A DNA stretch of 64,000 nt from an uncultured Prevotellaceae bacterium (lineage in GTDB: Bacteria; Bacteroidota; Bacteroidia; Bacteroidales; Bacteroidaceae). Shown here piece after piece: positions 10,804-48,499 of this stretch (positions within the stretch are counted from its first letter, which is position 1; each line of letters begins with the position of its first letter). The stretch lies in contig CAMOKH010000111.1 in NCBI GenBank assembly GCA_946617675.1, positions 7,685 to 71,684 of the forward strand. Reading direction: 5' to 3'. Both the position numbers and the translations under genes were made by a program. Under the pieces are notes generated by a model. It was not told the origin of the DNA, made no database searches, and worked only from the letters and a program-made list of their open reading frames with translations.

Positions 10804-10831
10804 TTATTACTTATTACTTATTACTTATTAC
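10804..10831. repeat. TTATTAC heptamer x4 overlapping the stop codon of the upstream gene
   Basis: ttattacttattacttattacttattac. Confidence 0.85.
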
Positions 10832-13269
10832 CTCTTTACCACTTTCCTGCCACCAACGATGTAGACACCACGAGGCAGACCGTCGAGCGAGGTGGAGCCA
10901 CGACGCACGATCTGTCCGGTGAGCATATAGACATTGTCGGAAGCCTGACCGGCTGTACCGCCAGCAGCCACGTCGTGGATGCCCGTCGGGAATGTGTTGT
11001 TGTTGGCCTTGCCGTGGACGTTGGTCTGATAGAACTTCACGCGGTAAGGCCACTGCTCGGTTGCCCCCTCCTCTGACCAGCTGAGCCAGTCGCGCGTCCA
11101 ATAGCTGGTGGGAGCACCGCTGACCACCAGCCACAGATGGCTGCAGTTGGCGGGACAATCGAAGGCGATGACACTATCCGGGGCGGCGTATGTAGCCGTA
11201 GCAATGTCGCCATAGACACGTGTGCCGTTGCGCTGCAGGGCCACGAAGCCGAACTTCCAGCCGGCTTTGCTGACGTTGCGCGAGACGTAGCCCGCCTTAC
11301 CGGCTTCGCCCTCGAACTCGGCATAGACGGTGCGACCGTCAGAGGGCACGTTCAGGCGGATGGCATTATTGCCGAAGTTCTCGATACAGTTAGCTGCCGT
11401 TGGCGACCAGAAGCCTTCGTCGTCCTGGGTGAGCACCGTCTGGGCTCGCTTGCCGATGGTGGCCTTGCCCCGCTGGCGGATGGGGTCCAGGTCGAAGGTG
11501 GTCATGCGTGCGCCGTACTCCCACATCTCGTCGTTCAACTGGTCCAGCTTCTTGGCGGCATTGCCGGTCATCGTCAGTCGCATGTAGGCCTGTAGCGGGT
11601 CTTCGGGACTGACCGACCTGTTCCAGAGCCGGCCGATGACATCCATGCCGTGCTTATGGCAGAAGTAGTCCTGAATGAAGTAGTTGTTGTAGCGCAGGTC
11701 GACGCAGAGCGGATGGCGGTGCAGGCCGTTGAGCGTGCCCGTGAGCCATTCGTTGTCGAACTGCATCGCAGGGTAGAACTTATAAGCCTGCCACTGGGCA
11801 CACATCTCCCAGAACACATTCAGCGTAGACTGGCCCCAGTTGTACATCCAGCCATTCTGGTTGTTGTTGTCGCAGTGGGTCTGATACTGGAAGCAGTGGC
11901 CTATCTCGTGAGCCACAGTCTGACCGCTGCGCGAGGTATGGGCCCCGTTCGAGAGCGTCAGCAGACCTATCATGTTGTCAATGCCGCTGCCGCTGGCCTC
12001 CCACTCGGTGGTGTAGCGCAGGCGGATAATCATCTTATAGGTGTCCGACTTCGACTTACCCTGATTGATGGTGATGAACTTCAGGCTGTCGGCATAGAAC
12101 TCAAAAATCTTGTCGGCAGTACTCAGGATGGTAGTCACCGAGGCCGGCACGCCGGCGCCATAGCCCGACTCCCAGAACAGTATCCAGTGCTTCGACTGCA
12201 GGCTGCGGTCGTAGCACCACTGGCTGGAGGCATTCTTCAGCTGGGCATCAGTGCCACAGGCGTTGGTACTGCAGTAGATTCTCTTGTCGACACCTGTTAT
12301 GCGGTTCCTGAGCTGAGACGTGGCGGTGGTCAGCTGACTCTTGGTCAGGGTATAGTCGGTCACAGTCTGGCGGGCTTTCTCGAGTCCCGTCTTCAAGGTG
12401 GCTATCGCCGTGGCCTTGCGGGGCGTGTCCTCCCACCAGCCGATGACCTTCTCGGCGTAGTCGATGCGCTCCTCTAAAGCGTCGTACAAGTCGCGCGAAG
12501 CCTGGGCCTCCTCTAATGCGGCCTGCAACTGCACATAGGCCTCAGCCAGTGCGCCCTCGTCGTAGAGGGTGTTGCCAGCGTCGTCGGCACCGATTCCCTC
12601 AAGGGCTTTCGCGGCCACAGCCATCGCTGTCCTCAGCGTCTCAGCCACGGCGTTCTGTATGCCTTTATCGAGGAGCGCCTGTCCCTGTTCAACCGCGCTC
12701 TGCAACTCCTTGGCGTAGCTGGCAGCAGTGACCTCGCCGGTGTACTGCAGCGTGAAGTTGTCGACACAAAGATAGTTGCCCGTGGCAGCCTCGGCCTTCA
12801 GGCCTATCTCCACGCTGCCTTTGTCCTCAAGGACGGCGAACGTTACGCTGTACTGCCGCATGGCCGTCACCAACGTCCTGGAATTTCCGGCAAACAGATA
12901 GGCACCCTTCTGGGCCGTCCCCTTGTTTACGGTACTGCCGCTGCTGCTCTGCTGGATGTGCAGCGCCGAGGCCGTCAGCTTATAGGTGCCCTTAGGCAGG
13001 TTACGCAGCGTCTGCGTAACTGAGGCGTCGCCCAACTGCTGGCCGATGCTGACCCATGACTCAGCGTAGTAGCTACCCTTCTTGAGGGTGAACACCGAGT
13101 TGCCCTGCCGGCTCATGCCGTTGACGGTCCAGCCCGTCGCCAGTTCACTCTCGAACGACGGGTTCTGTATGTAGCTCGTTCGGTCTGCGGTTTCGGCCGC
13201 AGCCGGCCCTACCCCAACCATTGCAAGCAGAAGGGCCAGCCACAACCTTAATTGCCAGTTTAAGTGCAT
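10828..13269 (-). CDS. Secreted HExxH metallopeptidase-like protein (DUF6055-like) with C-terminal secretion tail
   Basis: Signal peptide from ATG 13269; IQNPSFE carbohydrate-binding-like N-domain, helical linker, VAHEIGHCFQY, FWEMCAQW, GVYIVGGRKVVKR. Confidence 0.7.
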   Translation of the reverse strand: MHLNWQLRLWLALLLAMVGVGPAAAETADRTSYIQNPSFESELATGWTVNGMSRQGNSVFTLKKGSYYAESWVSIGQQLGDASVTQTLRNLPKGTYKLTASALHIQQSSSGSTVNKGTAQKGAYLFAGNSRTLVTAMRQYSVTFAVLEDKGSVEIGLKAEAATGNYLCVDNFTLQYTGEVTAASYAKELQSAVEQGQALLDKGIQNAVAETLRTAMAVAAKALEGIGADDAGNTLYDEGALAEAYVQLQAALEEAQASRDLYDALEERIDYAEKVIGWWEDTPRKATAIATLKTGLEKARQTVTDYTLTKSQLTTATSQLRNRITGVDKRIYCSTNACGTDAQLKNASSQWCYDRSLQSKHWILFWESGYGAGVPASVTTILSTADKIFEFYADSLKFITINQGKSKSDTYKMIIRLRYTTEWEASGSGIDNMIGLLTLSNGAHTSRSGQTVAHEIGHCFQYQTHCDNNNQNGWMYNWGQSTLNVFWEMCAQWQAYKFYPAMQFDNEWLTGTLNGLHRHPLCVDLRYNNYFIQDYFCHKHGMDVIGRLWNRSVSPEDPLQAYMRLTMTGNAAKKLDQLNDEMWEYGARMTTFDLDPIRQRGKATIGKRAQTVLTQDDEGFWSPTAANCIENFGNNAIRLNVPSDGRTVYAEFEGEAGKAGYVSRNVSKAGWKFGFVALQRNGTRVYGDIATATYAAPDSVIAFDCPANCSHLWLVVSGAPTSYWTRDWLSWSEEGATEQWPYRVKFYQTNVHGKANNNTFPTGIHDVAAGGTAGQASDNVYMLTGQIVRRGSTSLDGLPRGVYIVGGRKVVKR

Positions 13270-13351
13270 AATCAATCCTATCTCCTTTTTTTGCCTGCAA
13301 ATATCGGTAAAAAAACTGAAACGGCCAAATGTTTCGATGAAAAAGTAGGAT

Positions 13352-14296
13352 CTACCCTTCGCCACGCTCATTTCTGGCAAAGATACGGGCGACGATGGCA
13401 CCGCTCAGATTATGCCACACGCTGAACACGGCGCCGGGGATGGTGGCCATCGGATAGGCAGCGAAATGGAGCGTGGCCAGACTGGAGGCAAGGCCTGAGT
13501 TCTGCATGCCCACCTCGATGCTGACAGCACGACGCTTGGCAGGGCTCATGCCCAACAACCGCCCAACGGCATAACCCAGGGAGAGTCCACAGAGATTGTG
13601 GAGCATGACGACGAGGATGATGATCAGTCCGCCGGCCAGCAGCTTCTCAGCATTGGCGGAGATGATGATGAGCACGATGGCACAGATGGTGAGCGACGAC
13701 AGGGCGGGTAGATAGGCCGTGGTCCTCTCAGTGAACCGTGGCCACAGCCACTTGACAATCAGGCCTGCCATGATGGGCAGGATGACCACCCAAAGTATGC
13801 TCAGCAGCATGCCTGCCACATCGACATCCACCGTATGGCCCGCGAGGAGCCACACCAGCAGCGGTGTCAGCACCGGGGCCAACAGCGTCGAGGTGGCCGT
13901 CATGCCCACCGACAAGGCCAGGTCGCCCTTGGCCAGATAGGTAATGACGTTTGAGGCCGTACCGCCGGGGCAACAGCCCACGAGCACCACGCCGACGGCC
14001 AGGGCCTCGTCGAGCGCAAAGAGCCTCGACAGGGCGAACGCCAGCAGCGGCATGATGGTGAACTGGGCCAGGCAGCCGATGAAGATGTCCTTCGGTCGGC
14101 TGAAGACCAGCCGGAAGTCTTCTATACGCAGGGCCATGCCCATACCAAACATGATAACGCCCAACATTGGATTGATGACCGTGGGCTTCACGCCACTAAA
14201 GGCACTGGGTGCTATCATGCCCACAATTGCTGAGAGCAACACCAAGGCACCCATGTAGTCGGAAATCAGTTTACAGATTCGTTTAATCGTATTCAT
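13352..14296 (-). CDS. Bile acid:sodium symporter (BASS) family transporter
   Basis: GVIMFGMG, CCPGGTASNV, SIEVGMQNSGLA. Confidence 0.92.
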   Translation of the reverse strand: MNTIKRICKLISDYMGALVLLSAIVGMIAPSAFSGVKPTVINPMLGVIMFGMGMALRIEDFRLVFSRPKDIFIGCLAQFTIMPLLAFALSRLFALDEALAVGVVLVGCCPGGTASNVITYLAKGDLALSVGMTATSTLLAPVLTPLLVWLLAGHTVDVDVAGMLLSILWVVILPIMAGLIVKWLWPRFTERTTAYLPALSSLTICAIVLIIISANAEKLLAGGLIIILVVMLHNLCGLSLGYAVGRLLGMSPAKRRAVSIEVGMQNSGLASSLATLHFAAYPMATIPGAVFSVWHNLSGAIVARIFARNERGEG

Positions 14297-14300
14297 TTCT

Positions 14301-14345
14301 TTTGGGAGTTTAGGAGTTTAGGAGTTTAGGAGTTTGGGAGTTTAG
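14301..14345. repeat. TTT(A/G)GGAG octamer x5.5 supplying the anSME stop codon
   Basis: tttgggagtttaggagtttaggagtttaggagtttgggagtttag. Confidence 0.85.
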
Positions 14346-15477
14346 ACATTACATTTGCCGGCGGGCGTCCGGCCTCGATTTCTGCGCGCATGAAGTCCAT
14401 CGTTGGGGCGACGTGGGCAAAGAACTGACGGTAGCCCCGGCAGAGGAAGTTCAGGCCGGGCTGGCCCCAGCGGTCGGTCAGCGAGCGATTCTTGGGGCAC
14501 TCGCCATGACAGGCGAACAGCCAACGGCACTCACGACACTGACGGGGCAGCGACGACTGCTTCAGCAGGCCAAACTGACGTTGGCGGTCGCCGTAGAGAA
14601 GACTCACGAGCGGCTGCCGGCGGATATTTCCCAGGCAGTAGTCTGGACGGACGAAGTGGTCGCAGGAGTAGACGCTGCCGTCGGCCTCCATCGCGGCGGC
14701 CTGGCCACAGACCGGCGACATCGAGCAGACGCCGGCCGGTTGACCGCACCAGTTGGCCAGCGTGGCGTCGAAGAGTTGCACGAAGAGGCGGCCCACATCG
14801 CGCTGCACCCATTCGTCGTAGACGGCACAGAGGAAACGACCCCATTGATCGGGCGTGACGGAACAGTCAGGACGGTCAGGCTCGACGACAGGCGTAAACT
14901 GCAGGAACTCGCAGCCGATGTCACGAAAGAAGCGGTAGAACGCTTCGGGGTGTTCAACGTTGACAGCATTCACCGTAGCCATAGCATTCCACTCAACGCC
15001 ATGACGCTGCAACAGGCCGATGGCCCGCATCACGTCGTGCCACGACGCCCCACCCTGCCGAGTGCGGCGGTAGGCGTCGTGCAGCGGTTGTGGCCCGTCG
15101 ATGCTGATGCCCACGAGGAAGTGGTTGTCAGCCAGGAAGCGGCACCACTCGTCGGTGAGCAGCGTGCCGTTGGTCTGCAGACAGTTGTCAATGTGGCATC
15201 CGTGAGCATACTTCCGCTGCAGTGCGAGCGCTTTTTCATAGAACGACAGCGGACGCAGCAGCGGTTCGCCGCCATGCCAGGTGAAGAGCACCTGGGGCAC
15301 GGGCTGCGACTCGATGTACTGGCGGGTGAACTCCTCGAGCAAGGCCTCGTCCATCATCACCCCGCTGCCACGCCCCAGGTAGTAGCAATAGCCACACGAC
15401 AGGTTACAACGGTCGCCGACGGGCTTCAGCATCACGTACGCCGGGCGGGCAAAGGGTTGTATCGGCTGCCTATTCAT
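14326..15477 (-). CDS. Anaerobic sulfatase-maturating radical SAM enzyme (anSME/ChuR-like)
   Basis: CNLSCGYCYY, WHGGEPLL, SPASM cysteines (YSCDH, CRECRWLFACHGECPK); next to the sulfatase. Confidence 0.93.
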   Translation of the reverse strand: MNRQPIQPFARPAYVMLKPVGDRCNLSCGYCYYLGRGSGVMMDEALLEEFTRQYIESQPVPQVLFTWHGGEPLLRPLSFYEKALALQRKYAHGCHIDNCLQTNGTLLTDEWCRFLADNHFLVGISIDGPQPLHDAYRRTRQGGASWHDVMRAIGLLQRHGVEWNAMATVNAVNVEHPEAFYRFFRDIGCEFLQFTPVVEPDRPDCSVTPDQWGRFLCAVYDEWVQRDVGRLFVQLFDATLANWCGQPAGVCSMSPVCGQAAAMEADGSVYSCDHFVRPDYCLGNIRRQPLVSLLYGDRQRQFGLLKQSSLPRQCRECRWLFACHGECPKNRSLTDRWGQPGLNFLCRGYRQFFAHVAPTMDFMRAEIEAGRPPANVMSKLPNS

Positions 15478-16846
15478 CGTCAATAGGATAGTTGGCCGAA
15501 GGTGTGCGCAGTCGTCGCATCAGCGCATCGAGACGCTGCACCACGTCGGGATAGTCGGCTGCCAGATTGTGCTGTTCCAGCGGGTCGTCCTTTATGCGGT
15601 AGAGTTCGAGCGGCGCACCTTTTTTCACCGTCACGGCTTTCCAGCCCTGGTGGCGAATGGCGCGCTGCTTACCCGGAAACTCCCAGTAGAGCGGACGGCT
15701 GTCGGTGTCGATATCGCGACCGAAGAACAGAGGCGAGATGTCCATGCCGTTGGTGTCGTCGGGCACGTACTCAGGATGGCCGGCCAACTGCGCCAGCGTA
15801 GGCATAAAGTCGGCGAAGTAGACGAGGTTGGCAATCTGCCGTGCCGGCACCCGGCCGGGCTGATTGACGATGAGGGGCACACGGATGCCGCCCTCGTAGA
15901 GTTGGCCCTTGCGGCCTTTCAGTCCGGCACCGCAGTTCAGCTCCTTCAGCGGAGCCATAACGGCGGCCCCATTGTCGCTGGCAAAGATCACGATCGTCTG
16001 CTCGCGCTGCCCGAGAGCGTCGAGCGTTGCCAAGAGCCGGCCAATGTTGTAGTCCATGTGTGTAACGAGTGCGGCGTAGCGCTTCGTCTCGGCCGACCAG
16101 TCGCCCCGGTCGTCATACCATGATGTGTCGTCAATGTTGTAAGGCTCGTGGGGAGCGTCATACCCAAGGAACAGGAAGAACGGCTGCTTCCCGGCCCAGC
16201 GATGGATGAACCCGATGGCATCGTCAGTCGAGATTTCGGTGTTGTGGCGCACATGGGCGTCATGCTCGTTCTCGCTGATGTTGACGAGCGAGTCGCCGTG
16301 CAACCGATAATAAGGATAGTAATAAGGCGCATTGCTGTGGACGGTACTGATGGTCCAGCCGTAGAACTCGTCGAAGCCCCTGTGGTTGGGAGCCGCCCCG
16401 GGGTCGTAGCCATCGAGGTGCCACTTATTGACCAGACAGGTGCGGTAGCCCGCCTTTGAGAGCACCGTGCCGAGCGTGACGTCGTCGGGCAAGAGGTTTG
16501 CCCGGCGCACGATGGTCGTGTCGCCGCGCGGATTGATCTTCAGTCCCGTCAGTCCTCCGGCGTAGCACTGGTTGTCGCGGATGCGGGTGTTGCCAGAGTT
16601 CTTGCCCGTCATGAGCGAACAGCGCGAGGGCGAACTGATGCCGCTGCCGGCGTATGCCTGCGTAAACGATGTGCCGGTGCTGGCCAGACGGTCGATGTTC
16701 GGCGTCTGGATATACTGATTGCCATAGCAGGCCAGGTCGCCGTAGCCCATGTCGTCGGCCAGGATAAAGATGATATTGGGCCGCTCGCCGACAGCCATCG
16801 CCTGCTGTGCCAACAGGGCGCCAAAGGCCATTAGAACATTCTTCAT
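15470..16846 (-). CDS. Ser-type S1 sulfatase, secreted
   Basis: PNIIFILADDMGYGD, SSPSRCSLMTG (SxPxR), KWHL, SDNG, YEGGIRVP. Confidence 0.93.
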   Translation of the reverse strand: MKNVLMAFGALLAQQAMAVGERPNIIFILADDMGYGDLACYGNQYIQTPNIDRLASTGTSFTQAYAGSGISSPSRCSLMTGKNSGNTRIRDNQCYAGGLTGLKINPRGDTTIVRRANLLPDDVTLGTVLSKAGYRTCLVNKWHLDGYDPGAAPNHRGFDEFYGWTISTVHSNAPYYYPYYRLHGDSLVNISENEHDAHVRHNTEISTDDAIGFIHRWAGKQPFFLFLGYDAPHEPYNIDDTSWYDDRGDWSAETKRYAALVTHMDYNIGRLLATLDALGQREQTIVIFASDNGAAVMAPLKELNCGAGLKGRKGQLYEGGIRVPLIVNQPGRVPARQIANLVYFADFMPTLAQLAGHPEYVPDDTNGMDISPLFFGRDIDTDSRPLYWEFPGKQRAIRHQGWKAVTVKKGAPLELYRIKDDPLEQHNLAADYPDVVQRLDALMRRLRTPSANYPIDDE

Positions 16847-16859
16847 TTCGTTTTTGCTT

Positions 16860-16890
16860 GCAAATTTACGAAAAAGTTCGTAACTTTGCA
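16860..16890. promoter_or_regulatory. Symmetric bidirectional promoter (sulfatase / nitroreductase)
   Basis: tgcaaatttacgaaaaagttcgtaactttgca holds TAnnTTTGCA on both strands. Confidence 0.7.
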
Positions 16891-16909
16891 CACAAAACAA
16901 AGAAAAACA

Positions 16910-17677
16910 ATGAAAAATCTACTTACACGCCGTACCATCCGCAAATATGCGGACAAAGAAGTTGACCAGCAGCTGCTGAACCGCCTCATGCAGGAGGCCG
17001 CCCGTACACAGACTATGGGTAACCTGCAACTCTACTCCGTCGTCGTCACCCGTTCCGACGAGATGAAACGGAAACTGGCACCGGCACACTTTGGTCAGCC
17101 GATGGTGACCGAAGCACCCGTGGTGCTCACCGTCTGTGCCGACTTCAACCGCACCAGTTTCTGGGCGAAATGCCGCAATGCCGAGCCGGGCTACGACAAC
17201 CTGCTCTCGTTCATGAACGCCGCCACCGACGCCCTGCTCTACGCGCAGACGCTCTGCAACCTCATGGACGAGGAGGGACTGGGCTACTGCTACCTCGGCA
17301 CTACCGTCTACCAGCCGCATCAGATCATCGACATACTGCACCTGCCCAAGCTCACCATGCCCGTGGCCACGCTGACCGTAGGCTGGCCTGCGGAGGAGCC
17401 TCCCCTCTCCGACCGCCTGCCCTTGGAGAGCTTCGTCCACCAGGAGCGCTACAAGGACTACATGGCCAATGACATTGACACCTATTATAACTATAAAGAA
17501 GAACTCGAAGAGAACCGCCATTTCGTCGAGGTCAACCACAAGGAGACGCTCGCCCAGGTTTTCACCGACATCCGCTATACGCGCAAGGACAACGAAGCCA
17601 TGTCAAAGACGCTTATCGAGACCCTCGTCCGCCAGGGCTTCCTGCCATACACACTTAAAATGGGGATGCTCGGCTGA
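16910..17677 (+). CDS. NfsA/Frp-like nitroreductase (NADPH-flavin reductase)
   Basis: RRTIRKY, TMGNLQLYSVV, GLGYCYLG, RLP motifs. Confidence 0.9.
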   Translation: MKNLLTRRTIRKYADKEVDQQLLNRLMQEAARTQTMGNLQLYSVVVTRSDEMKRKLAPAHFGQPMVTEAPVVLTVCADFNRTSFWAKCRNAEPGYDNLLSFMNAATDALLYAQTLCNLMDEEGLGYCYLGTTVYQPHQIIDILHLPKLTMPVATLTVGWPAEEPPLSDRLPLESFVHQERYKDYMANDIDTYYNYKEELEENRHFVEVNHKETLAQVFTDIRYTRKDNEAMSKTLIETLVRQGFLPYTLKMGMLG

Positions 17678-17691
17678 GCATCCCCATTTTT
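17657..17691. terminator. Bidirectional intrinsic terminator between convergent genes
   Basis: aaaatggggatgctc-ggct-gagcatccccatttt. Confidence 0.8.
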
Positions 17692-17715: not shown

Positions 17716-19170
17716 TTACTCTACTACGATGGGCTTGTACTTCGGCACGAGCGTCTTCATGATGCACCAGCCAATGAGGTAGGCCACGGCGCAGATGCAG
17801 AACACCACCATATAGGCGGCAGGTTTGCCGTCGAAACCGAAGAAGGTGAAGGCCTCACCCTGTCCCTCGGCCCAGGTAAAGAAGTTACCCGAACCCTTGT
17901 TGATAAGGAACGAGCCCACACCGCCGGCCATTGAACCAATGCCAGTGATGGTACCGATGGTCGACTTGGGGAACATATCGCCAATAGTAGAGAAGAGGTT
18001 GGCCGACCAAGCCTGGTGACCGGCACCAAGCAGGCCGATGAGGATAGCAGGCCACCAAGCGCTATAGGCTCCTAAGGGCTGAGCGAAGAGTCCTAACACG
18101 GGGAAGCAGGCAAAGATGAGCATGGCACGCATGCGGCCCAGATAGGGGTTCATGCCCTTTTTCTCTACGAAGTAGGTAGGCAGGTAGCCGCCGCCGATGC
18201 TGAGCACGGTGACGATGGCATAGAGCGTCAGAATGAGCAGGATGCCCATCGTTGAGTCGCTGGTGTAGCCATACTGGTCAGAGAAATAGGCGGGTGCCCA
18301 GAAGAGGAAGAACCACCACACGCCGTCGGTCATGAACTTGCCGACGATGAACGACCACGTCTGCTTGTACTTGAAGCAGTCGAAGAAGGGGATGACCTTC
18401 TCCTCCTTAGCCTCCTGCTTGTTCTGCACCTCGGCAATGTCGATGTCTTGCTCAATGTAGTTCAGTTCAGCCTGGTTGACGAACTTGCTCTTGTGGGGCT
18501 TCTCGTAGAGCCACATCCACAAGCCCATCCACACGTAGCCCAGCACACCGATAATGACGAAGGCCATCTCCCAGCCCCAGGCGCGGGCCAGCAGGGGAAT
18601 GGTGGCGGGAGCAGCCAGAGCGCCGACAGAAGCGCCACTGTTGAAGATGGAGGTAGAGAAGGCACGGTCCTTCTTGGGGAAGTACTCGGCCGTCACCTTG
18701 ATGGCGGCGGGGAAGTTGCCTGCCTCGCCAAGAGCCAGAATCATGCGGCACGAAAGGAAGAGCCACACCGAGACGGTGGCAATGGCCACGGCGGCATCGC
18801 TGCCGGCCTGCACCAGCCTGAGTGCCTCGATGGAGTCGTAGCCCTCTATCTGCATGGCAGCCCAGCCGCAGGCAGCGTGGAGCACGGCACCTGTCGACCA
18901 AACGAAGATGGCAATGAGGTAGCCCTTCTTCGTGCCCATCCAGTCGATGAACTTACCGGCGAAGAGGTTGGCAATGGCATAGAAGATAGAGAACCATCCG
19001 GTGATGGTACCATAGTCGGCATCGCTCCAGTGGAACTCCGGGGCGATGAAGTCTTTCCATGTGAGCGACAGGACCTGGCGGTCCATATAGTTAATCGTGG
19101 TTGCCAAGAACAGCAGCGCACAGATGACCCAACGGAAGTTGGACATTTTGGTGGTTTGTACGGGAGTCAT
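17716..19170 (-). CDS. MFS hexuronate transporter (ExuT-like)
   Basis: RWVICALLFLATTINYMDRQ, GEAGNFPAAIK, FNSGASVGA; downstream of kduI. Confidence 0.88.
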   Translation of the reverse strand: MTPVQTTKMSNFRWVICALLFLATTINYMDRQVLSLTWKDFIAPEFHWSDADYGTITGWFSIFYAIANLFAGKFIDWMGTKKGYLIAIFVWSTGAVLHAACGWAAMQIEGYDSIEALRLVQAGSDAAVAIATVSVWLFLSCRMILALGEAGNFPAAIKVTAEYFPKKDRAFSTSIFNSGASVGALAAPATIPLLARAWGWEMAFVIIGVLGYVWMGLWMWLYEKPHKSKFVNQAELNYIEQDIDIAEVQNKQEAKEEKVIPFFDCFKYKQTWSFIVGKFMTDGVWWFFLFWAPAYFSDQYGYTSDSTMGILLILTLYAIVTVLSIGGGYLPTYFVEKKGMNPYLGRMRAMLIFACFPVLGLFAQPLGAYSAWWPAILIGLLGAGHQAWSANLFSTIGDMFPKSTIGTITGIGSMAGGVGSFLINKGSGNFFTWAEGQGEAFTFFGFDGKPAAYMVVFCICAVAYLIGWCIMKTLVPKYKPIVVE

Positions 19171-19200
19171 AGATATTTACGGTTTCAGATTTTCGATTTA

Positions 19201-20202
19201 CTATTTGATATCGATGACGGGAATGTTGTCCTTGTCGTTATAGTAAAGGTTCTCGCCAGCCATACCCCAGATGAAGGTATAGTAATAGGTGCCGGCAGCG
19301 GCGTGCATCGACCACTCGGGCGACATGATGGCCTGCTCGTTGTGCAGCCAGACGACACGGCTCTCCTCAGGCTGTCCCATGATATGGGCGATGGTCTGCT
19401 CCTGAGGCAGGTTGAAGTAGTAGTAGGCCTCGATGCGGCGGCCGTGGGTGTGGGGCGGCATGGTGTTCCACGCGGCGCCGGGATTGAGCTGTGTCAGGCC
19501 GAGCTGCAGCTGGCAGGGGCCCTCCTCGAGCACGTCGTTGACAATGAGCTTGTAGACGGTGCGGTTGTTGCACTCCTCAAGCGAACCGACGGGGCCCCAG
19601 ACGGCGGCCTTCAGCGAGCCCTTGCGGCCGTCGAGGGTAATCCATTGCGTCTTGAAATGCTGGTGAGCGGTGGCCGAGTTCAGGTAGAACTTGGCGGGAT
19701 TCTTGGGATCCTTCGAGCGGAACTGCACCTTCTTGTTCACATCCTTGTCCTTGGCTATGTGGCCACGGCCGATATACAGGGCCTCCTTCGGCGACAGGGC
19801 ATACTCCTTGCCGTCGACGATGACTACGCCGTCGCCGCCACCGCAGTTCACGACGCCGAGCTCACGGTTGTACATGAAGTACTTCTCCTTGATGGTGTTG
19901 TCGACGTCGAGACCCAGCTCCCAGAAGTTCTCCAGCGTCAGCGTCGTGTTGACGGGCATGGCGCCGCCGAAGATGAAGCGGTCGTAGTGGGAATAGGTGA
20001 GCAGGATGGAGTCAGGTGCCATCACCTTCTCCATGACGAAACGGTCGCGGAGCAGCTTCGTGTCATAGTGTTTTACATCCTCGGGATGGCAGGCCGTCTG
20101 GAACTTCACGTGCTGAACGCCTACATACCTGTCAGCTTCCTGCGCCTGGGCAGAAAGGGTGAGGGCCAGAGCCCCCGCAATGGTCAGAATTGTTTTTTTC
20201 AT
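19201..20202 (-). CDS. kduI: 5-dehydro-4-deoxy-D-glucuronate isomerase with N-terminal Sec signal peptide
   Basis: [48 protein letters not shown]; [21 protein letters not shown] leader. Confidence 0.92.
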
Positions 20203-20215
20203 TGTTGTTTTGTCG

Positions 20216-21583
20216 TTATTTGTTATTTTTTTCTTCTTTGACGATGCGCATGCGGTTCCAGATGACCATGCCGATGGTGATGGCGGTGAGGACAGCAGCA
20301 CCAATCCACTTCAGGTAAGCCACACACTTGTAGATGACCCAGCCGAAGAGCGAGGAGGCGAAGTCGAGGGCACCACCCTCGAAGCCGGCGGGAATGTCGG
20401 CGGCCTTGTCGCCCGTCTGCTCGAAGACGGTGTGGGCGGCCTGCGTGAAGGCGGGCGCCATGTCGGTGACGAAGTAGAGGCCGATGGCCAGGGCTACCAG
20501 TCCGATGATGAACGTCTTGACGACATTACCCTTCGTGAACGGCAGCACCACGGGGAACAGGTAGAACATACCAGCCAGCGAGGCCAGCGGCAGGAACTGG
20601 TTGCCGGGCAGGATGACGGCCAGGCCCAGGGCCACGGGAATGAGCAGCAGCGAGACGACGAGCGTCGTCGGGTGGCCGATGACCACGGCGGGCGACATGC
20701 CGATATACACCTTCTTGCCGTTGAACTTGCGCTTCACCACCTCCTGCGTCTTCTCGGCGATGGGCTTCAGACCCTCGATGAAGAGCGAGGTGATGCGGGG
20801 AATCAGCTCCATGACGGCACCCATCGTGACGCCGAGGAACAGCACCTTCTTGATGTCCATCTGAGCCAGCACGCCGATGAGCGCACCGACGATGACGCCG
20901 AGCACGAGCGGCTCGCCGAGTACGCCGAACTTCTTCTTCAGTCCGTCGGCATCGATATTCAGGCGATCGAAGCCGGGAATCATGTCGAGCAGCTTGCCGA
21001 TGCCCAAGGCGAAGGGCACGAAACTCTGGCAGAAGGGCTGCGGGATGCTGATGCCCTGCCACTCAGGGTAGTACTCCTGGAAGCGGTCGGCGGTGAGGTC
21101 AGCCATGACCAGTGTCACGATGTAACAGACGATGGCGGCGAAGTAGCCCCACAGCAGGCTCCCGTCCATGACAAAGTAGGCTACAGCGCCGATGAAGGCG
21201 AAGTGCCAGTAGTTCCACAGGTCGATATTGACCGTCCGGGTGCAGCCGGTGATGAGCAGCAGGAAGTTCACGCCCAGACAGATAGGGATGATCAGTGCGC
21301 CGACAGCGGTGTTATAGGCCACGGCGGCAGCGGCAGGCCAGCCCATGTCGAAGACCTTCAGCTGAAGGTCGTAGAGCTGAGAGATATCACTAAGCGGCCC
21401 ACCGAAATTGGTGGTCAACAGAGCCGTCACAATGCCCAGGCCCACAAAACCGACACCTACATAGAGGCCCGACTTCAGCGAGCGTCCGAACTTCAGACCG
21501 ATACACAGACCGATGATTGTAAAGAGAATAGGCATCATGACCGACGCCCCCAAACTGATAATGTAACTGAATACTTGTTCCAT
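20216..21583 (-). CDS. Orphan PTS galactitol-type IIC (GatC family) membrane protein
   Basis: [31 protein letters not shown]; no IIA/IIB genes nearby. Confidence 0.9.
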
Positions 21584-21715
21584 TTTATTGATTAGTTTTG
21601 TTTGTTTTAGCGCAGAATACGGTGCAAAAGTACTAATTATTTTCCAAACGGCGGCAGTTTTTCCCAGAAAATGTGTAACTTTGTGCCCTCAAATTTGCTA
21701 ACAATACTTCAAAAT

Positions 21716-23248
21716 ATGACAAGAGCAACCCTTTCGGTCGTCTTTGCCCTGCTTTTTTCGCTGGCACCGGCCAATGCTGCAACCCGCCAGAAAGGCCCCG
21801 GATGCTGGCGTACGGCGACAGCCCGACAGAAGGCTGCGGCCCGCATGGCCGTGAAGCGACCCGTTGACATCGGCGAGCGCACCAACTACCGTGGACAGAA
21901 GCGCGGACTGGTCATCCTGGCCGAGTTTTCCGACACGAAATTCAAGGACACCCACAATCGCGCTAAGTACAACGACATTCTCAATTCGCCGGGCTACACC
22001 ACCAACGAGGGATTCCGAGGCAGTGTGGCCGACTATTTCCGCGACCAGTCGGCAGGCCTGTTCGAACTGCAGTTCGACGTCGTCGGCCCCTACACCACGA
22101 AACACAGCTACCGTTACTACGGCAAGAACGACGACGAGGGCCTGGACCTCTATCCGCAGGACATGATCGAGGAGATGTGCATCGCTGCCGACGGCGAGGT
22201 CGACTTTAGCAATTACGACTGGGACGGCGACGGCATCGTCGACGAGGTGTTCGTGCTCTACGCCGGCAAGGGCGAAGCCGACAACTCGCCCAGCAAGCCC
22301 GACCTCGTCTGGCCTCACATGTGGACGCTCTCCGAAGCCAACGGAGCACCGCTACGACTCGACGGCGTCGATATTGACGTCTATGCCTGCGCCAACGAAC
22401 TGGCGGCCGATGGCACCATCAACGGCATCGGCACCTTCTGCCACGAGTTCTCTCACTGCATGGGGTTCCCCGACTTCTACGACATTAACTACGGCGACAG
22501 CTACGGCATGGGCGACTACGACCTGATGTCGGGCGGCAACTACGCCGGCAACGGGTTCCTGCCTGTGGGCTACACGGCCTACGAGAAGATGGTCTGCGGC
22601 TGGCAGGAGCCTGTCGTGCTGGGCCATGAGGATGTCAGCGTCGACAGCCTGAAACCCATCAGCGAGCATGGCGACACCTACATCATCTACAACGACGGCT
22701 GTCCCGACGAGTACTACATGATAGAGAACCGCCAGCGCACGGGCTGGGACGCCCGCTACCCCTCGCGGGGACTGCTCATCACGCATGTCGACTTCGATGC
22801 CGAGGTGTGGTTCAATAACATTCCCAACACCATAATGACCGATGAGGAGGCTTACGAAATGGAGCTGACCTGCGGCAACGACCACCAGCGCATGACGTTC
22901 TTCCACGCCGACAACACCGAGGACGACTACTCGACACGCACCGACCTCTACCCCTACGGCACGCGCGACTCGCTAACGACCACCTCGCGGCCGGCAGCCA
23001 AGCTCTTCAATAATAATTCGGAGGGGCAGAAGCTCATGCAGGGCGCCATACTCAACATCAAGCAGAACAGTGACGGCACGATGGCCTTCAGCTACCGCGC
23101 ACCGAAAGCCATCGCCGACGCCATCACCCAGCACCCAGCACCCGACACCCAGCACCCGACACCCTTCTACGACCTCCAAGGCCGCAGGGTCAGCAGGCCG
23201 GTGCGTGGGCTTTACATCGTCGGTGGCCGGAAGGTGGTTGTCCGCTAA
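21716..23248 (+). CDS. M6 family (immune inhibitor A-like) metalloprotease with C-terminal secretion tail
   Basis: GSVADYF, WPHMW, GTFCHEFSHCMGFPDFY, DLMSGG, YDLQGRRV..GLYIVGGRKVVVR. Confidence 0.9.
   Translation: MTRATLSVVFALLFSLAPANAATRQKGPGCWRTATARQKAAARMAVKRPVDIGERTNYRGQKRGLVILAEFSDTKFKDTHNRAKYNDILNSPGYTTNEGFRGSVADYFRDQSAGLFELQFDVVGPYTTKHSYRYYGKNDDEGLDLYPQDMIEEMCIAADGEVDFSNYDWDGDGIVDEVFVLYAGKGEADNSPSKPDLVWPHMWTLSEANGAPLRLDGVDIDVYACANELAADGTINGIGTFCHEFSHCMGFPDFYDINYGDSYGMGDYDLMSGGNYAGNGFLPVGYTAYEKMVCGWQEPVVLGHEDVSVDSLKPISEHGDTYIIYNDGCPDEYYMIENRQRTGWDARYPSRGLLITHVDFDAEVWFNNIPNTIMTDEEAYEMELTCGNDHQRMTFFHADNTEDDYSTRTDLYPYGTRDSLTTTSRPAAKLFNNNSEGQKLMQGAILNIKQNSDGTMAFSYRAPKAIADAITQHPAPDTQHPTPFYDLQGRRVSRPVRGLYIVGGRKVVVR
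23125..23164 (+). repeat. CACCC(AG/GA) heptamer array in the linker before the secretion tail
   Basis: cacccagcacccagcacccgacacccagcacccgacaccc encodes TQHPAPDTQHPTP. Confidence 0.8.
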
Positions 23249-25707
23249 TCCTGATAGTAGACGCGCTTCACGCGGTTCGACACGCCCGTCAGCACTTCGT
23301 ACGGTATGGTGTCGGTCAGGTCGCTGAGCACGGTGACCGGCAGTTGCTCGCCAAACACCTCGACGCTGTCGCCCTCGCGGCAGTCGATGCCCGTGACGTC
23401 GATCATGGCCACGTCCATACAGATGTTTCCTACATACTCAGCCCGCTGACCGTTCACCAGACAGTAGCCGTGGCGGTTGCCGAGGTGGCGGTTCAGTCCG
23501 TCGGCATAGCCGATGGGTATGGCCCCTATCAGCGAGTCGCGCTCCAGGACGGTGCGGCGGCTGTAGCCGATGCTGTCGCCAGCCTTGACATGGCGCAGCT
23601 GCAGGATGGTGGTCTTCAGCGTGCTCACGGTACTCAGCATTTCATTGTTACGCGGATTCACGCCGTAGAGCCCGATACCCAGTCGGCACATGTCCATCTG
23701 CCGCTCAGGGAAGTGCTCAATGCCGGCAGAGTTGTCGATATGGCGCAGGATCTTATGGCTGAAGGCGGCCTGCAACCGTCGGCTGCCTTCGTCGAAGAGC
23801 TGGAACTGGCGGGCCGAGAAGTCGTCGAACGTGTCACTGTCGCTGCCCACGAAGTGGCTGAACACCGAGCGCGGAATGACGGCCTGCTGGTGGCGAAGGC
23901 GGTCGATGAGCTCGTCCATGTCGGTCTCTGGGTCGAAGCCCAGTCGGTGCATGCCGGTGTCGAGCTTGATGTGTACGGGCCAGCCGGTGATGCCTTCCTT
24001 GCGGGCAGCACGGACCAGCGCGTCGAGCAGACGGAAGGAGTAGACCTCGGGCTCCAGGTCGTAGTCGAACATCGTCTTGAAGGCGGTCATTTCAGGATTC
24101 ATCACCATGATGTTCGACGTGACCCCTGCGCGGCGAAGGGCCACGCCCTCGTCGGCCACGGCCACGGCGAGGTAGTCTACGCGGTGGTCCTGCAGCGTCT
24201 TGCCCACCTCGACGGCGCCGGCGCCGTAGGCATCGGCCTTCACCATGCACACCATCTTCGTCTCGGGCTTCATCAGCGAGCGGTAGTAGTTCAGGTTGTT
24301 CACCACGGCACCCAGGTTCACCTCGAGTATCGTCTCGTGGACCTTCTGTTCCAGCAGTTCCGTGATATGTTCGAAGCCGAAACGGCGTGCCCCTTTCAGC
24401 AGGATAACCTCGTCGTGAAGGGCGCGGAAGGCGGGACTGGCGATGAACGCCTGTGTGGTGGCGAAAAAGTATTTCTCGCCGACGAGGAAGGCTTGCTGCT
24501 GGGCGGCGAGCTCGTCGCCGATGCCGATGAACTTCGTGACGCCGCGCTTCAGGCAGAGTTCGTTCACCTCGCGGTACAGGTCGGCTGCCGACGTGCCGCT
24601 CTGATAGATGTCGCTCAGCACGAGCGTGTGCCGCTCGTTGCCGTCGCCGCGCCGGTTCATGAAGTCGAGCGCAATGTCGAGCGAGTTGATGTCGTTATTA
24701 TACGAGTCGTTGATGAGTATGCAGCCGCGCTGGCCCTGCTTCACCTCCAGGCGCATGGCCACAGGCTCCAGGCCCGGCGTGCGCTCGGCTATCTGCTCGG
24801 GCGTCAGTCCGAGGTGCAGGGCAGTGACGACGCAGATGATGCTGTCGTCGATGCTGGCCTCGTCGATGAAGGGGATGGCGTACTCGCCTGGCGTACCTTT
24901 ATATATATACGCGATGTGGGCATTCTCGGCGCCGAGGGTAACCTCCTTGACGTAGAAGGGTGCCTGGCTGTCGGTGCGCGACCACCCGAGACGCTCGCCC
25001 TGGTAGCCGAGGCGCCGTATGCAGCGACTCACGGTGTTGTCGTCCATCGGGTAGACCAGTGCCTCGGTGTCGCGCATCAGCTCCAGTTTCTCCAGGCACT
25101 TCTCCTCCATCGAGCGGAAGTTCTCCTGATGGGCACTGCCCAGACAGGTGAGCACGCCGACCGTAGGCTGTATGATGTCGTGCAGGGCCATCATCTCGCC
25201 GGGCTGACTGATACCGGCCTCGAAGATGCCCACGCGGGCCTGCTCGTTGAGCAGCCATACCGACAGCGGCACGCCAATCTGCGAGTTGTAGGAGCGCGGC
25301 GAGCGCACAACCCGCTGCGAGGGCAACAGCAGCTGGTAGAGCCACTCCTTGACCATCGTCTTGCCGTTTGAGCCGGTGATGCCCACGATGGGTATCGAGA
25401 ATTCGTCGCGATGGCGCTCGGCCAGGCGCTGCAGGGCAGCCAGTGCCGAGGGCACCTTCAGGTAGTTGGCGTCGGCTTGCGGTTCAGCGGGCACCTGCTC
25501 TACCACAAACGAGCGCACGCCCCGGCGGTAGAGGTCGTCGATATAGCGGTGGCCGTCGCCGTGCTTTGTGCGGAAGGCGAAAAAGAGTGTTTCTTCAGGA
25601 AAACATAGTGAGCGGCTGTCGGTCAGCAGCCAGCGCACGCTGGCGTCGTTGTCGCCGTAGCGGCGTGCGCCGATGAGTGTGGTAATTTTCTCAATAGTAT
25701 ATGTCAT
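23245..25707 (-). CDS. alr: Bifunctional MurF-like ligase / alanine racemase
   Basis: GITGSNGKT, INDSYN, MVKADAYG (PLP lysine), HIKLDTGMHRLGF, GNICMD. Confidence 0.95.
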   Translation of the reverse strand: MTYTIEKITTLIGARRYGDNDASVRWLLTDSRSLCFPEETLFFAFRTKHGDGHRYIDDLYRRGVRSFVVEQVPAEPQADANYLKVPSALAALQRLAERHRDEFSIPIVGITGSNGKTMVKEWLYQLLLPSQRVVRSPRSYNSQIGVPLSVWLLNEQARVGIFEAGISQPGEMMALHDIIQPTVGVLTCLGSAHQENFRSMEEKCLEKLELMRDTEALVYPMDDNTVSRCIRRLGYQGERLGWSRTDSQAPFYVKEVTLGAENAHIAYIYKGTPGEYAIPFIDEASIDDSIICVVTALHLGLTPEQIAERTPGLEPVAMRLEVKQGQRGCILINDSYNNDINSLDIALDFMNRRGDGNERHTLVLSDIYQSGTSAADLYREVNELCLKRGVTKFIGIGDELAAQQQAFLVGEKYFFATTQAFIASPAFRALHDEVILLKGARRFGFEHITELLEQKVHETILEVNLGAVVNNLNYYRSLMKPETKMVCMVKADAYGAGAVEVGKTLQDHRVDYLAVAVADEGVALRRAGVTSNIMVMNPEMTAFKTMFDYDLEPEVYSFRLLDALVRAARKEGITGWPVHIKLDTGMHRLGFDPETDMDELIDRLRHQQAVIPRSVFSHFVGSDSDTFDDFSARQFQLFDEGSRRLQAAFSHKILRHIDNSAGIEHFPERQMDMCRLGIGLYGVNPRNNEMLSTVSTLKTTILQLRHVKAGDSIGYSRRTVLERDSLIGAIPIGYADGLNRHLGNRHGYCLVNGQRAEYVGNICMDVAMIDVTGIDCREGDSVEVFGEQLPVTVLSDLTDTIPYEVLTGVSNRVKRVYYQD

Positions 25708-25711
25708 GGTC

Positions 25712-26515
25712 TTATGATTTATATTTCTGCAGTAGTGCGTCGGCCCTGGCGCGGGTGTCGGCCAGGAAACGGCGGTACTCGTCACTGTCAGGGTTGAAGG
25801 GGCGATGGCCCAGGGCTGCCTTCAGCGGTGCCCATTCGCGCAGGAATTGCTTGGCCCGGGGCGAGAAGTAGTGCTCCACCAGTTGTTGCCAGATGAACTC
25901 AACGGCCACCGCTGACGGGTGGAGCATGTCGTCGGCATAGAAGCGGTAGTCGCGCAACTCGTCGAGCACGATTTCGTAGGCGGGGAAGTAGGTGAGGTGA
26001 GCAGTAAGAGGTGAGAGACAAGAGATGACCTGATTAACGGCAAGGAGGAGGGTGGCTTTCGAGAGCTGGCTCCCGTGGTAGCCATACTTGCGATAACGGA
26101 TGGGGCTGACGGTCAGGACGACATGGACGTCGGGACGACGGCTGACGAGCAGGCTGACGGCACGGCGCAGGTAGTCGGCACACTCGTCGACGCTGAGCAG
26201 TTCCTCCTGGAACAGCGCGGCGGGGCGCTTCTGGCAGTTATCTACAATCTCGCCCGTCTCGCGGAGACGGTAGACGTGGTTGGTGCCCAGGGTGATGAAT
26301 GCCACGCGGGGGGCTCCCTCGTAGCGCTCCACGGTGTGCAGCACCGAGGCGGGGTTGTACATCGTGCCGTAGGGGTTTACCGCAGCGCGGAACTGCTCGT
26401 CCTGGAAGCGCAGGCCAATGCTGTCGGCAAAGCAGCTGCCCACGAAGAGCATCTCCTCAAGGGGTTCTATCTGGAACTCCGGCGTCGGTATGTCTACTAT
26501 GGTTCGGAACTCCAT
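25712..26515 (-). CDS. GSCFA domain protein
   Basis: VGSCFA motif, TVSPIR, YFPAYEIVLDELRDYRFY..DMLHPS. Confidence 0.9.
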   Translation of the reverse strand: MEFRTIVDIPTPEFQIEPLEEMLFVGSCFADSIGLRFQDEQFRAAVNPYGTMYNPASVLHTVERYEGAPRVAFITLGTNHVYRLRETGEIVDNCQKRPAALFQEELLSVDECADYLRRAVSLLVSRRPDVHVVLTVSPIRYRKYGYHGSQLSKATLLLAVNQVISCLSPLTAHLTYFPAYEIVLDELRDYRFYADDMLHPSAVAVEFIWQQLVEHYFSPRAKQFLREWAPLKAALGHRPFNPDSDEYRRFLADTRARADALLQKYKS

Positions 26516-47029: not shown

Positions 47030-48499
47030 TTATTCCGTCAGCCGCACTCTGACGTTCTCGCGGATGATGTTCTGACAGTTCTGGAACGTCGCGTCATGAC
47101 GGGCCGAGATGTCGATGTTGCGCAGCGTGATGCGGTCGATGGGCATCTCGGGCAGTCCGTTGAACTCCATGGCGAAGCCGGCATTGTGGCAGATGACGTT
47201 GCGGATGTCGATGTTGCGGAAGATGGGCGTCTCCTCAGTCACGGGCATGGCCTTCGCCTCGGGCTGCGTCCCGCCTTCGGCCAGCACCTCGGCCACCGAC
47301 TTGCCGCCGTAGTACATGTTGAACGTCAGGGCGTAGGTCTTGATGTCGGTCATCGAGATACCGTCGATGAAGATGTTCTCGACGACACCGCCACGGCCGC
47401 GCGTCGACTTGAAGCGCAGGCCCACGTCGGTGCCTAAGAACTGGCAGTTCTTGACGCTGATGTTCCTCACGCCGCCGCTCATCTCGGAGCCCACGACGAA
47501 GCCGCCATGACCGGCAAAGACGGTGCAGCCGTCGACGACAACGTTCTGGCAGGGCTTGCCGCGGCGGCGCCCGTCGGCGTCCTTGCCGCTCTTGATGCAG
47601 ATGCCGTCGTCGCCGGCGTCGAACTTCGAGTTGACGATCAGGGCGTTGGTACACGATTCCAGGTCGAGGGCGTCGCCGTTCTGGGCGTAGGCGGGGTTGC
47701 GCGCCAGTACATTATCTATAATAATATTCTCGCACATCAGCGGGTGGAGGTTCCAGGCCGGCGAGTTCTGGAAGATGACCCCTTCGAGCAGCACGTTCTT
47801 ACAGCCCACGAGGCTCACCATCACCGGGCGCAGGAATCGCTTCACCTGCTGCCACTCCTCGTCGGTCTGGGCGGCGGGCACGTTCATGTTGGCACCGGCC
47901 TCGCCACGCTCGTAGCCCTCGGAGGGCACCCAGTAGCCCTTCTTCATCTCGCGGCCGCCGGGGCGCTGCAGGATTTCCTTCCACTGGGCGTCGGTCACCT
48001 TCTGTCGCTTCACGGGGCGCCAGTACTGGCCGTTGCCGTCGATGACGCCCTGGCCGGTAATCGAGATGTTGGTGGCGCCGTTGGCACTCAGCGGCGACTG
48101 GCAGCGGCGGGTGTCGAGGCCCTCGAACGACGTCTTGATCAGCGGGTAGAGGTTCTCGTCGGCGGCAAACTGTATGACGGCGCCCTTCTCGAGGTGCAGG
48201 TCGATGTTCGACTCTAACACGATGGGGCCCGTGAGCCACACGCCACGCGGCACGATGAGGTGGCCGCCGCCGTTGCGTTTCAGGTAGCTGACGGCCTTGG
48301 CGAAGGCCTCGGTGCAGAGGGTCTCGCCGTTGCCCACGGCGTCGAAGTTGGTCAGTTCAATCTTGCGGTCAGGAATGACCGGAGCTTTCACTTCGGCCAT
48401 CTGGAACGGCAGGCCGTCGGTGTACTGCTTGTAGTCTTTCTGTGCATTCAGACTAAGGAACGTGCCAAGAAGCAGGCACAAAAGGATTGTTTTCTTCAT
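47030..48499 (-). CDS. GH28 polygalacturonase-family glycoside hydrolase
   Basis: NGDALD, GDDGICIKSG, GHGGFVVGSE, RFKS; signal peptide. Confidence 0.93.
   Translation of the reverse strand: MKKTILLCLLLGTFLSLNAQKDYKQYTDGLPFQMAEVKAPVIPDRKIELTNFDAVGNGETLCTEAFAKAVSYLKRNGGGHLIVPRGVWLTGPIVLESNIDLHLEKGAVIQFAADENLYPLIKTSFEGLDTRRCQSPLSANGATNISITGQGVIDGNGQYWRPVKRQKVTDAQWKEILQRPGGREMKKGYWVPSEGYERGEAGANMNVPAAQTDEEWQQVKRFLRPVMVSLVGCKNVLLEGVIFQNSPAWNLHPLMCENIIIDNVLARNPAYAQNGDALDLESCTNALIVNSKFDAGDDGICIKSGKDADGRRRGKPCQNVVVDGCTVFAGHGGFVVGSEMSGGVRNISVKNCQFLGTDVGLRFKSTRGRGGVVENIFIDGISMTDIKTYALTFNMYYGGKSVAEVLAEGGTQPEAKAMPVTEETPIFRNIDIRNVICHNAGFAMEFNGLPEMPIDRITLRNIDISARHDATFQNCQNIIRENVRVRLTE

Follow-up and report, generated by a model that had tools for sequence, protein, structure and literature searches.

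The stretch analysed here, which we refer to as the window, comprises 64,000 nucleotides of contig CAMOKH010000111.1 (positions 7,685 to 71,684) of the assembly GCA_946617675.1, a metagenome-assembled genome (MAG) of 2.14 Mb in 117 contigs from an uncultured Prevotellaceae bacterium. Its minus strand carries, at 17716-21583, three co-directional genes that code, in this order, for an enzyme IIC component (EIIC, hereafter IIC) of the galactitol (Gat) family of the sugar phosphotransferase system (PTS), for a homologue of the isomerase KduI with a predicted signal peptide and for a transporter of the major facilitator superfamily (MFS). As the initial annotation had stated, the genes are tightly spaced; we measured 13 nt between the IIC stop codon and the ATG of kduI and 30 nt between the kduI stop codon and the ATG of the MFS gene. 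Since the MAG is only 56% complete, all claims of absence made below rest on the genomes of relatives.

The predicted promoter box TACTTTTG, which fits the consensus TAnnTTTG of the -7 box, lies about 40 nt 5' of the IIC start; a TTTG is found farther upstream. At the other end, a hairpin with a perfect, GC-rich stem of 10 bp is located 30 nt 3' of the MFS stop codon, and no comparable hairpin was found in the gaps of 13 nt and 30 nt within the unit. Because of these short gaps, the upstream box and the downstream hairpin, the three genes look like a single transcription unit, i.e. one operon. Contigs from rumen RNA libraries span all three genes at about 94% identity and bridge the junction between IIC and kduI including the leader; these data are contigs only, from which transcript ends, strand and expression level are not readable, and they are compatible with co-transcription but no proof of it. 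The flanking genes, a divergent gene for an M6 peptidase upstream and a nitroreductase gene on the plus strand downstream, are unrelated.

Table 1 Features of the IIC-kduI-MFS locus in coordinates of the window.
Feature	Position	Strand	Basis
-7 promoter box, Bacteroidota-type, TACTTTTG	21625..21632	-	Read from sequence; predicted
EIIC, galactitol (Gat) family, orphan, 455 aa; proposed non-phosphorylating importer	20216..21583	-	PF03611, TIGR00827
KduI signal peptide, codons 1-20	20143..20202	-	Predicted signal peptidase I cut before Gln21
KduI, 333 aa from ATG	19201..20202	-	NF002091, PDB matches, metal motif
MFS transporter, anion:cation symporter group (DgoT/ExuT-like), 484 aa	17716..19170	-	PF07690, TIGR00893
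Hairpin, intrinsic-terminator-like, GGGGATGCTC-agcc-GAGCATCCCC then ATTTTA	17656..17685	-	Read from sequence

A KduI homologue with a conserved leader

The product of the second gene is a full-length member of the KduI family, with 335.5 bits against NCBIfam NF002091 (curated cut-off 250; profile positions 2-277) and 60.5 bits against PF04962 (cut-off 23.9). The canonical cytoplasmic KduI (EC 5.3.1.17; E. coli 1XRU/1X8M, L. rhamnosus 7E4S, PDB 9KCZ) belongs to the same family, the solved chains 9KCZ, 1XRU and 1X8M scoring 245-275 bits, and the two forms share the HxH...E...H motif and, in some genomes, their pathway neighbours. The protein of the window differs from canonical KduI by a predicted cleavable leader of 20 residues, about 10 extra residues at the N-terminus of the mature protein, internal inserts and a constant pairing with an EIIC. 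In contrast, the canonical KduI of the same genus (280 aa, starting with MKTNYE) is leaderless and was never found with an IIC neighbour.

The open reading frame listed for kduI (19201-20304) opens at an upstream TTG overlapping the IIC gene. We place the true start at the ATG at position 20202, which has an A-rich context and lies about 33 residues ahead of the beginning of KduI homology. The intervening sequence consists of an MKK n-region, a hydrophobic core and the residues SAQA followed by Gln, so that the mature protein is predicted to begin with QEADRY. Gln at position +1 is known as the Q-rule for substrates of signal peptidase I in Bacteroidetes (PMC5837995, PMC10653852), and the leader displays all of its features, i.e. 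a basic n-region, a hydrophobic core, small residues at -3 and -1 and Gln at +1.

Comparison with relatives bears out the Sec signal peptide ending in AQA-Q that had been noted initially. Of the species-level loci that could be scored, 79 of 79 have the leader in frame; it takes 67 distinct forms, which differ in length by multiples of a codon. Of 120 listed database relatives (65% identity or more), those of full length start with an n-region rich in Lys, followed by a hydrophobic core and A/G-x-A/G-Q, and remoter homologues, with identities as low as 45%, have the leader too. When 34 exported KduIs from three lineages were compared, conservation of Gln21 reached at least 90%, in contrast to the variable remainder of the leader. 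The exceptions among the listed relatives are some N-terminally truncated fragments and the leaderless P0105, a protein of 302 aa in which a canonical N-terminus sits on a body of the type found in the window; its long branch falls within the exported clade, and it probably stems from a chimeric metagenome contig of 1.7 kb. We conclude from these comparisons, which go well beyond what chance would produce, that the leader is genuine and conserved.

One could object that the leader is left untranslated, KduI being made from a GTG at residue 32 as a cytoplasmic protein, or that it stays uncleaved and anchors KduI in the membrane. The GTG does stand at the position where canonical KduI starts, but relatives have QTVQY, VNYKM or TEYTI there, and the exported relatives compared do not share any other start farther downstream; a start downstream of the leader was thus not borne out. 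Against this objection also speak the in-frame leader with its whole-codon length changes across about 130 relatives, the retention of Lys-Lys, hydrophobic core and an A/G-x-A/G site followed by Gln, and the IIC stop codon just ahead of the ATG.

KduI contains neither a lipobox cysteine nor a type IX secretion C-terminal domain, so the predicted destination of the leader-bearing protein is the periplasm, rather than the cytoplasm that is typical of characterised KduI enzymes. The cupin metal-site motif H251-x-H253...E258...H300 is invariant in the 34 exported KduIs and aligns with both 9KD0 and 9KCZ; in E. coli KduI, the metal ligands are His196, His198, Glu203 and His245. The invariance of this site argues that exported KduI retains its function as an enzyme.

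The solved chain closest to the protein of the window is not one of the canonical enzymes but PDB 9KD0, with 392 bits. It belongs to the same exported subfamily, with the inserts GRKGSLKA and EEGPCQLQ in common, and is most similar to a Bacteroides gene that has both a leader and an upstream IIC (locus L110). Residue 5 of the 9KD0 chain aligns with residue 32 of our protein, i.e. the chain begins approximately where the mature protein would, which suggests removal of the leader by the depositors. Its existence has thus probably been noticed by at least one laboratory.

The exported KduIs fall into three types, referred to as A (the window and 9KD0), B (loci L096-L100) and C (L112, L114-L119), which are only 46-62% identical to one another and to canonical KduI, whereas the IIC in front of them stays 57-80% identical. 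In a maximum-likelihood tree built without the leader columns, all three types were placed within one well-supported clade of Bacteroidales, in which the leaderless Bacteroidaceae forms of KduI are nested as sister to type C (support 81/85). This tree, calculated freely, requires two changes of the leader state; a single exported clade was not rejected in the approximately unbiased (AU) test (p = 0.31, with P0105 left out as probable chimera). Some type B proteins (L097, L098 and L100) have an extra Cys-containing segment of 15 residues (QCGKCGYEVKAEN..., QNCKTSLYPMKSEN...), which separates the KduI core from the cleavage site.

A Gat-family permease coupled to exported KduI

IIC matches PF03611 with 241 bits (cut-off 24.2) and reaches 379.9 bits against the galactitol-specific model TIGR00827, which is below the cut-off of 542.2. 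Its closest solved chain is GatC (PDB 9U82; 261 bits over residues 3-406). GatC and the ascorbate EIIC UlaA belong to the same PF03611 family, and an elevator-type carrier fold as described for UlaA (PMC6048161) is expected for IIC by homology. IIC and its Bacteroidales relatives form a tight subfamily of their own, the nearest full-length relatives outside of Bacteroidales, including PTS-linked ones, being at most 42% identical. This gap was seen by exhaustive search, a word-based homologue search having returned close rumen relatives only. Of two such outside relatives inspected, one has a PTS_IIB neighbour. The relative with the top bit score (P0125) is only 61% identical to IIC; it has a length of 677 aa and may hold a duplication or fusion.

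The Bacteroidales subfamily further differs from GatC and UlaA in that none of the partner proteins of a PTS was found in near-complete genomes carrying it, and its fixed partner is a predicted periplasmic enzyme. In five congeners of 98-99% completeness that carry the IIC-KduI pair, the search for enzyme I (EI), HPr, EIIA_2 and PTS_IIB was negative, and neither EIIA, EIIB, EI nor HPr was found in the MAG itself, 56% complete as it is. EI was found in none of the 16 genomes sampled from the genus and in 5 of 300 from the family. As controls, the same searches were positive in E. coli and B. subtilis, and in B. thetaiotaomicron they detected EIIC but not EI or HPr. The claim of an orphan IIC made in the initial annotation has accordingly stood up to the search for ptsI, ptsH, IIA and IIB, and the sequence data support a PTS-free IIC.

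A conventional alternative would have the remaining PTS components encoded elsewhere in the genome, with IIC importing and phosphorylating galactitol or a related polyol. It could appeal to the database annotation as galactitol-specific IIC, to the incompleteness of the MAG and to two carriers of another genus that possess EI; the TIGR00827 score below cut-off and the searches of genus, family and near-complete congeners, together with their controls, speak against it. These two carriers, G638 and G671, represent both sampled genomes of their genus and are the sole IIC carriers with EI among the 300 family genomes.

With regard to gene context, IIC and exported KduI turned out to be strictly coupled. 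In 80 of 80 species-level loci, IIC immediately precedes exported KduI, and the distance from stop codon to ATG has a median of 25 nt. In the sample of 300 family genomes, IIC was found in 101 and KduI in 169; coordinates were read for 60 of these genomes (61 pairs), in which KduI is located just downstream of IIC on the same strand, the lone exception being a contig break (L120). The tallies of IIC and KduI match in most of the IIC-carrying genera (e.g. 16/16, 12/16, 10/16 and 2/16), and IIC is missing from genera in which every KduI is leaderless (two genera, 0/16 each). In an order-level sample, IIC was detected in four genomes, one Bacteroides from the family of the window and three from two other families, and all four have a leader-bearing KduI behind IIC. 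No EIIC-Gat above cut-off was detected in 300 phylum-wide genomes, nearly all of them from outside Bacteroidales.

The conserved core of the locus is the IIC-KduI pair. The MFS gene, which had originally been counted as third member of the pathway, is adjacent in 55 of the 80 species-level loci and absent in several distant contexts, i.e. it is accessory and dispensable. In such contexts the pair is retained alone, for example next to gyrA (L083), next to a GH31 gene (L085) or, in Bacteroides, between an operon for resistance-nodulation-division (RND) efflux and tatC (L110). The pair is also common, occurring in about a third of the sampled family genomes, including human-gut Bacteroides and many rumen Prevotella.

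In two genomes the copy number of these genes deviates. Genome G674 has the pair of IIC and exported KduI twice, once on each of two contigs (L118). In G641, the first copy of exported KduI retains its IIC (L115), and a second, identical copy including the leader has no IIC within 3 kb (L116; C1:233500-238500).

Complex prediction for IIC and mature KduI (alignments A2 and A1) gave a score of 0.00, which is uninformative for or against binding.

A proposed periplasmic step in uronate uptake

We propose that in this rumen Prevotella KduI is exported by the Sec pathway, cut by signal peptidase I before Gln21 and active in the periplasm. Unsaturated uronyl hydrolases of the glycoside hydrolase (GH) families GH88 and GH105 would release 4,5-unsaturated uronate in this compartment, which would open to 5-keto-4-deoxyuronate (DKI, also called DHU), and KduI would convert DKI to 3-deoxy-D-glycero-2,5-hexodiulosonate (DKII). 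The Gat-family EIIC would then carry DKII over the inner membrane without phosphorylating it, acting, in the absence of a PTS, as a uniporter or an ion-coupled carrier. In the cytoplasm, a short-chain reductase of the DhuD or 'gluconate 5-dehydrogenase' type would reduce DKII to 2-keto-3-deoxygluconate (KDG) and thereby pull uptake, with KDG formation plus phosphorylation drawing the flux inward. The MFS transporter would serve as an accessory importer of sugar acids. Most simply, the strict coupling would mean that the permease takes up what the exported enzyme produces: DKII would occur in the periplasm only if KduI is located there, which would explain why IIC is never found without exported KduI.

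That the operon consists of a periplasmic KduI making DKII and an EIIC importing it without phosphorylation is, in our judgement, probable, though far from settled. It is also the interpretation of the initial annotation, which is supported overall, since, the points on MFS and GH28 genes aside, every part of it that could be tested computationally held. More tentatively, a PTS permease may have become a PTS-independent importer in Bacteroidales, with a substrate that would not exist but for the relocation of KduI to the periplasm, and may form an obligate pair, possibly a complex, with the relocated KduI; this pair could represent the long-missing route of unsaturated uronates from pectin and host glycosaminoglycans across the inner membrane of gut and rumen Bacteroidales, an idea that we put forward with some reserve.

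Several observations connect the pair with unsaturated uronates. KduI is present in 26 of 41 genomes of the genus, and in the five near-complete congeners the exported form is the only KduI, next to 2-4 GH88/GH105 genes in each genome. One of the five, G002, has the co-directional gene order DUF2264, GH88/105, a gene of unknown function, short-chain reductase, IIC, exported KduI and DUF4861. Its reductase matches NF005488 ('gluconate 5-dehydrogenase') with 500 bits and is of the type named DhuD in PMC12838403. The DUF4861 gene, a member of the BT3233 family, lies directly downstream of exported KduI in G002 (locus L098, 5774-6943, minus strand). B. thetaiotaomicron requires BT3233 to grow on chondroitin sulfate, hyaluronan and heparin (PMC8121099), substrates that have unsaturated uronate as common product. 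The DUF4861 protein of G002 may act on this same intermediate in the periplasm. In B. finegoldii, the trio adjoins two pectinesterase genes, and the MAG itself has GH88/GH105 genes on other contigs. As the Bacteroidales hydrolases releasing unsaturated uronate are periplasmic (PMC9067506), DKI arises outside of the inner membrane.

Some points weigh against the proposed route. The operon of the window is not located inside a utilisation locus for pectin or glycosaminoglycans. No KduD or DhuD orthologue was found in the assembled part of the MAG; its best short-chain reductases are of the FabG and FlxB types, and a tblastn search with the DhuD-type reductases of the congeners returned FabG only, at 37-41% identity, which is uninformative at 56% completeness. 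Two IIC carriers of one other genus, the above-mentioned G638 and G671, possess an EI gene, and we know of no Gat-family EIIC whose function independent of a PTS is documented. Finally, the location and activity of KduI, the substrate of IIC and the way in which transport is energised are deduced from sequence.

An account that we consider unlikely but worth weighing keeps the periplasmic enzyme and the carrier and assigns them to another sugar acid, a periplasmic keto- or aldo-uronate such as saturated glucuronate or galacturonate, with the MFS transporter instead of IIC carrying DKI or DKII. Identity between the exported forms and canonical KduI is only 46-54%, type A has inserts of its own, the match to NF002091 tells the family rather than the substrate, and many contexts of the pair are devoid of any uronate enzyme. 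Furthermore, E. coli KduI is reportedly active on hexuronates (Rothe et al. 2013). On the other hand, exported KduI is the sole KduI in several near-complete genomes with GH88/GH105, and the pair has genes for GH88/105 and a DhuD-type reductase as neighbours in G002 and pectinesterase genes in B. finegoldii. The unchanged metal site and the name given to 9KD0 by its depositors, DKI isomerase, also favour DKI as substrate.

It is rather improbable that the exported KduI homologue is not a free enzyme but mainly a periplasmic binding or docking partner of IIC, in the manner of a solute-binding protein. Strict adjacency with very short gaps and the co-occurrence of the two genes almost one to one within genera would suit such a role, but the catalytic metal ligands, for which a pure binding protein would have no need, are invariant, and the second exported copy in G641 has no adjoining IIC. 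The two accounts raised in the preceding sections, a KduI without functional leader and an IIC belonging to an ordinary PTS, are both highly improbable in view of the evidence given there.

There is partial precedent for the proposed periplasmic KduI-IIC route. Dickeya dadantii imports DKI, DKII and KDG by KdgT, so DKII is a precedented import substrate. KdgT, however, belongs to an unrelated transporter family, and the intermediates in Dickeya arise in the cytoplasm or the medium, without a dedicated periplasmic isomerase. The kduI-dhuD and kduI-kduD clusters surveyed in PMC12838403 represent the same pathway, and a DhuD-type reductase stands next to our module in one congener; the fixed neighbour of the isomerase here, though, is the permease and not the reductase. 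The survey treats KduI as one class and mentions neither a signal peptide nor a PTS-type permease. Our literature searches (exported KduI, 9KD0/9KCZ, 'KduI2', Bacteroides IIC with pectin) returned no description of the system. Both protein families are known, and new are the predicted location of KduI, the PTS-free state of IIC and their obligate pairing.

If the proposal is correct, a textbook cytoplasmic step has been relocated to the periplasm, and the module offers a concrete and testable uptake route for unsaturated uronates. IIC would then be an example from nature of an EIIC of the Gat family that functions without any PTS, which matters for the classification of transporters and for annotation pipelines, by which IIC is tagged as "PTS subunit" in PTS-free organisms. 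Since the pair is widespread, metabolic reconstructions of the use of fibre and mucosal glycans would be affected as well.

Accessory and neighbouring genes

The MFS protein matches PF07690 with 176 bits, and its nearest solved chain is DgoT (6E9N; 95 bits). Its initial designation as ExuT fits as far as the anion:cation symporter group is concerned; we regard 'ExuT' itself as a family-level guess, the score against TIGR00893 being 170.8 bits at a cut-off of 395. Likewise, the GH28 gene that had been cited as fitting pectin use does exist in the window (47030-48499, minus strand) but adds little to such a link: it lies 26 kb from the operon, outside any polysaccharide utilisation locus and alone among the housekeeping genes bipA, queA, truB, bacA and ftsX.

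Downstream of the operon, with the plus-strand nitroreductase gene in between, the minus strand carries a co-directional block (10828-16900) coding for a DUF6055 protein, an SBF (sodium/bile-acid family) transporter, a radical-SAM/SPASM anaerobic sulfatase-maturating enzyme and a sulfatase. This block hints at the use of sulfated glycans and is not conserved next to the IIC-KduI pair in other genomes. A gene for a murF-alanine racemase fusion (23245-25785, minus strand) lies near the trio in the window and also in B. finegoldii (L148), where tatA/tatC and an AAA-domain gene are found between the fusion gene and the trio; the arrangement is an old synteny between Prevotella and Bacteroides.

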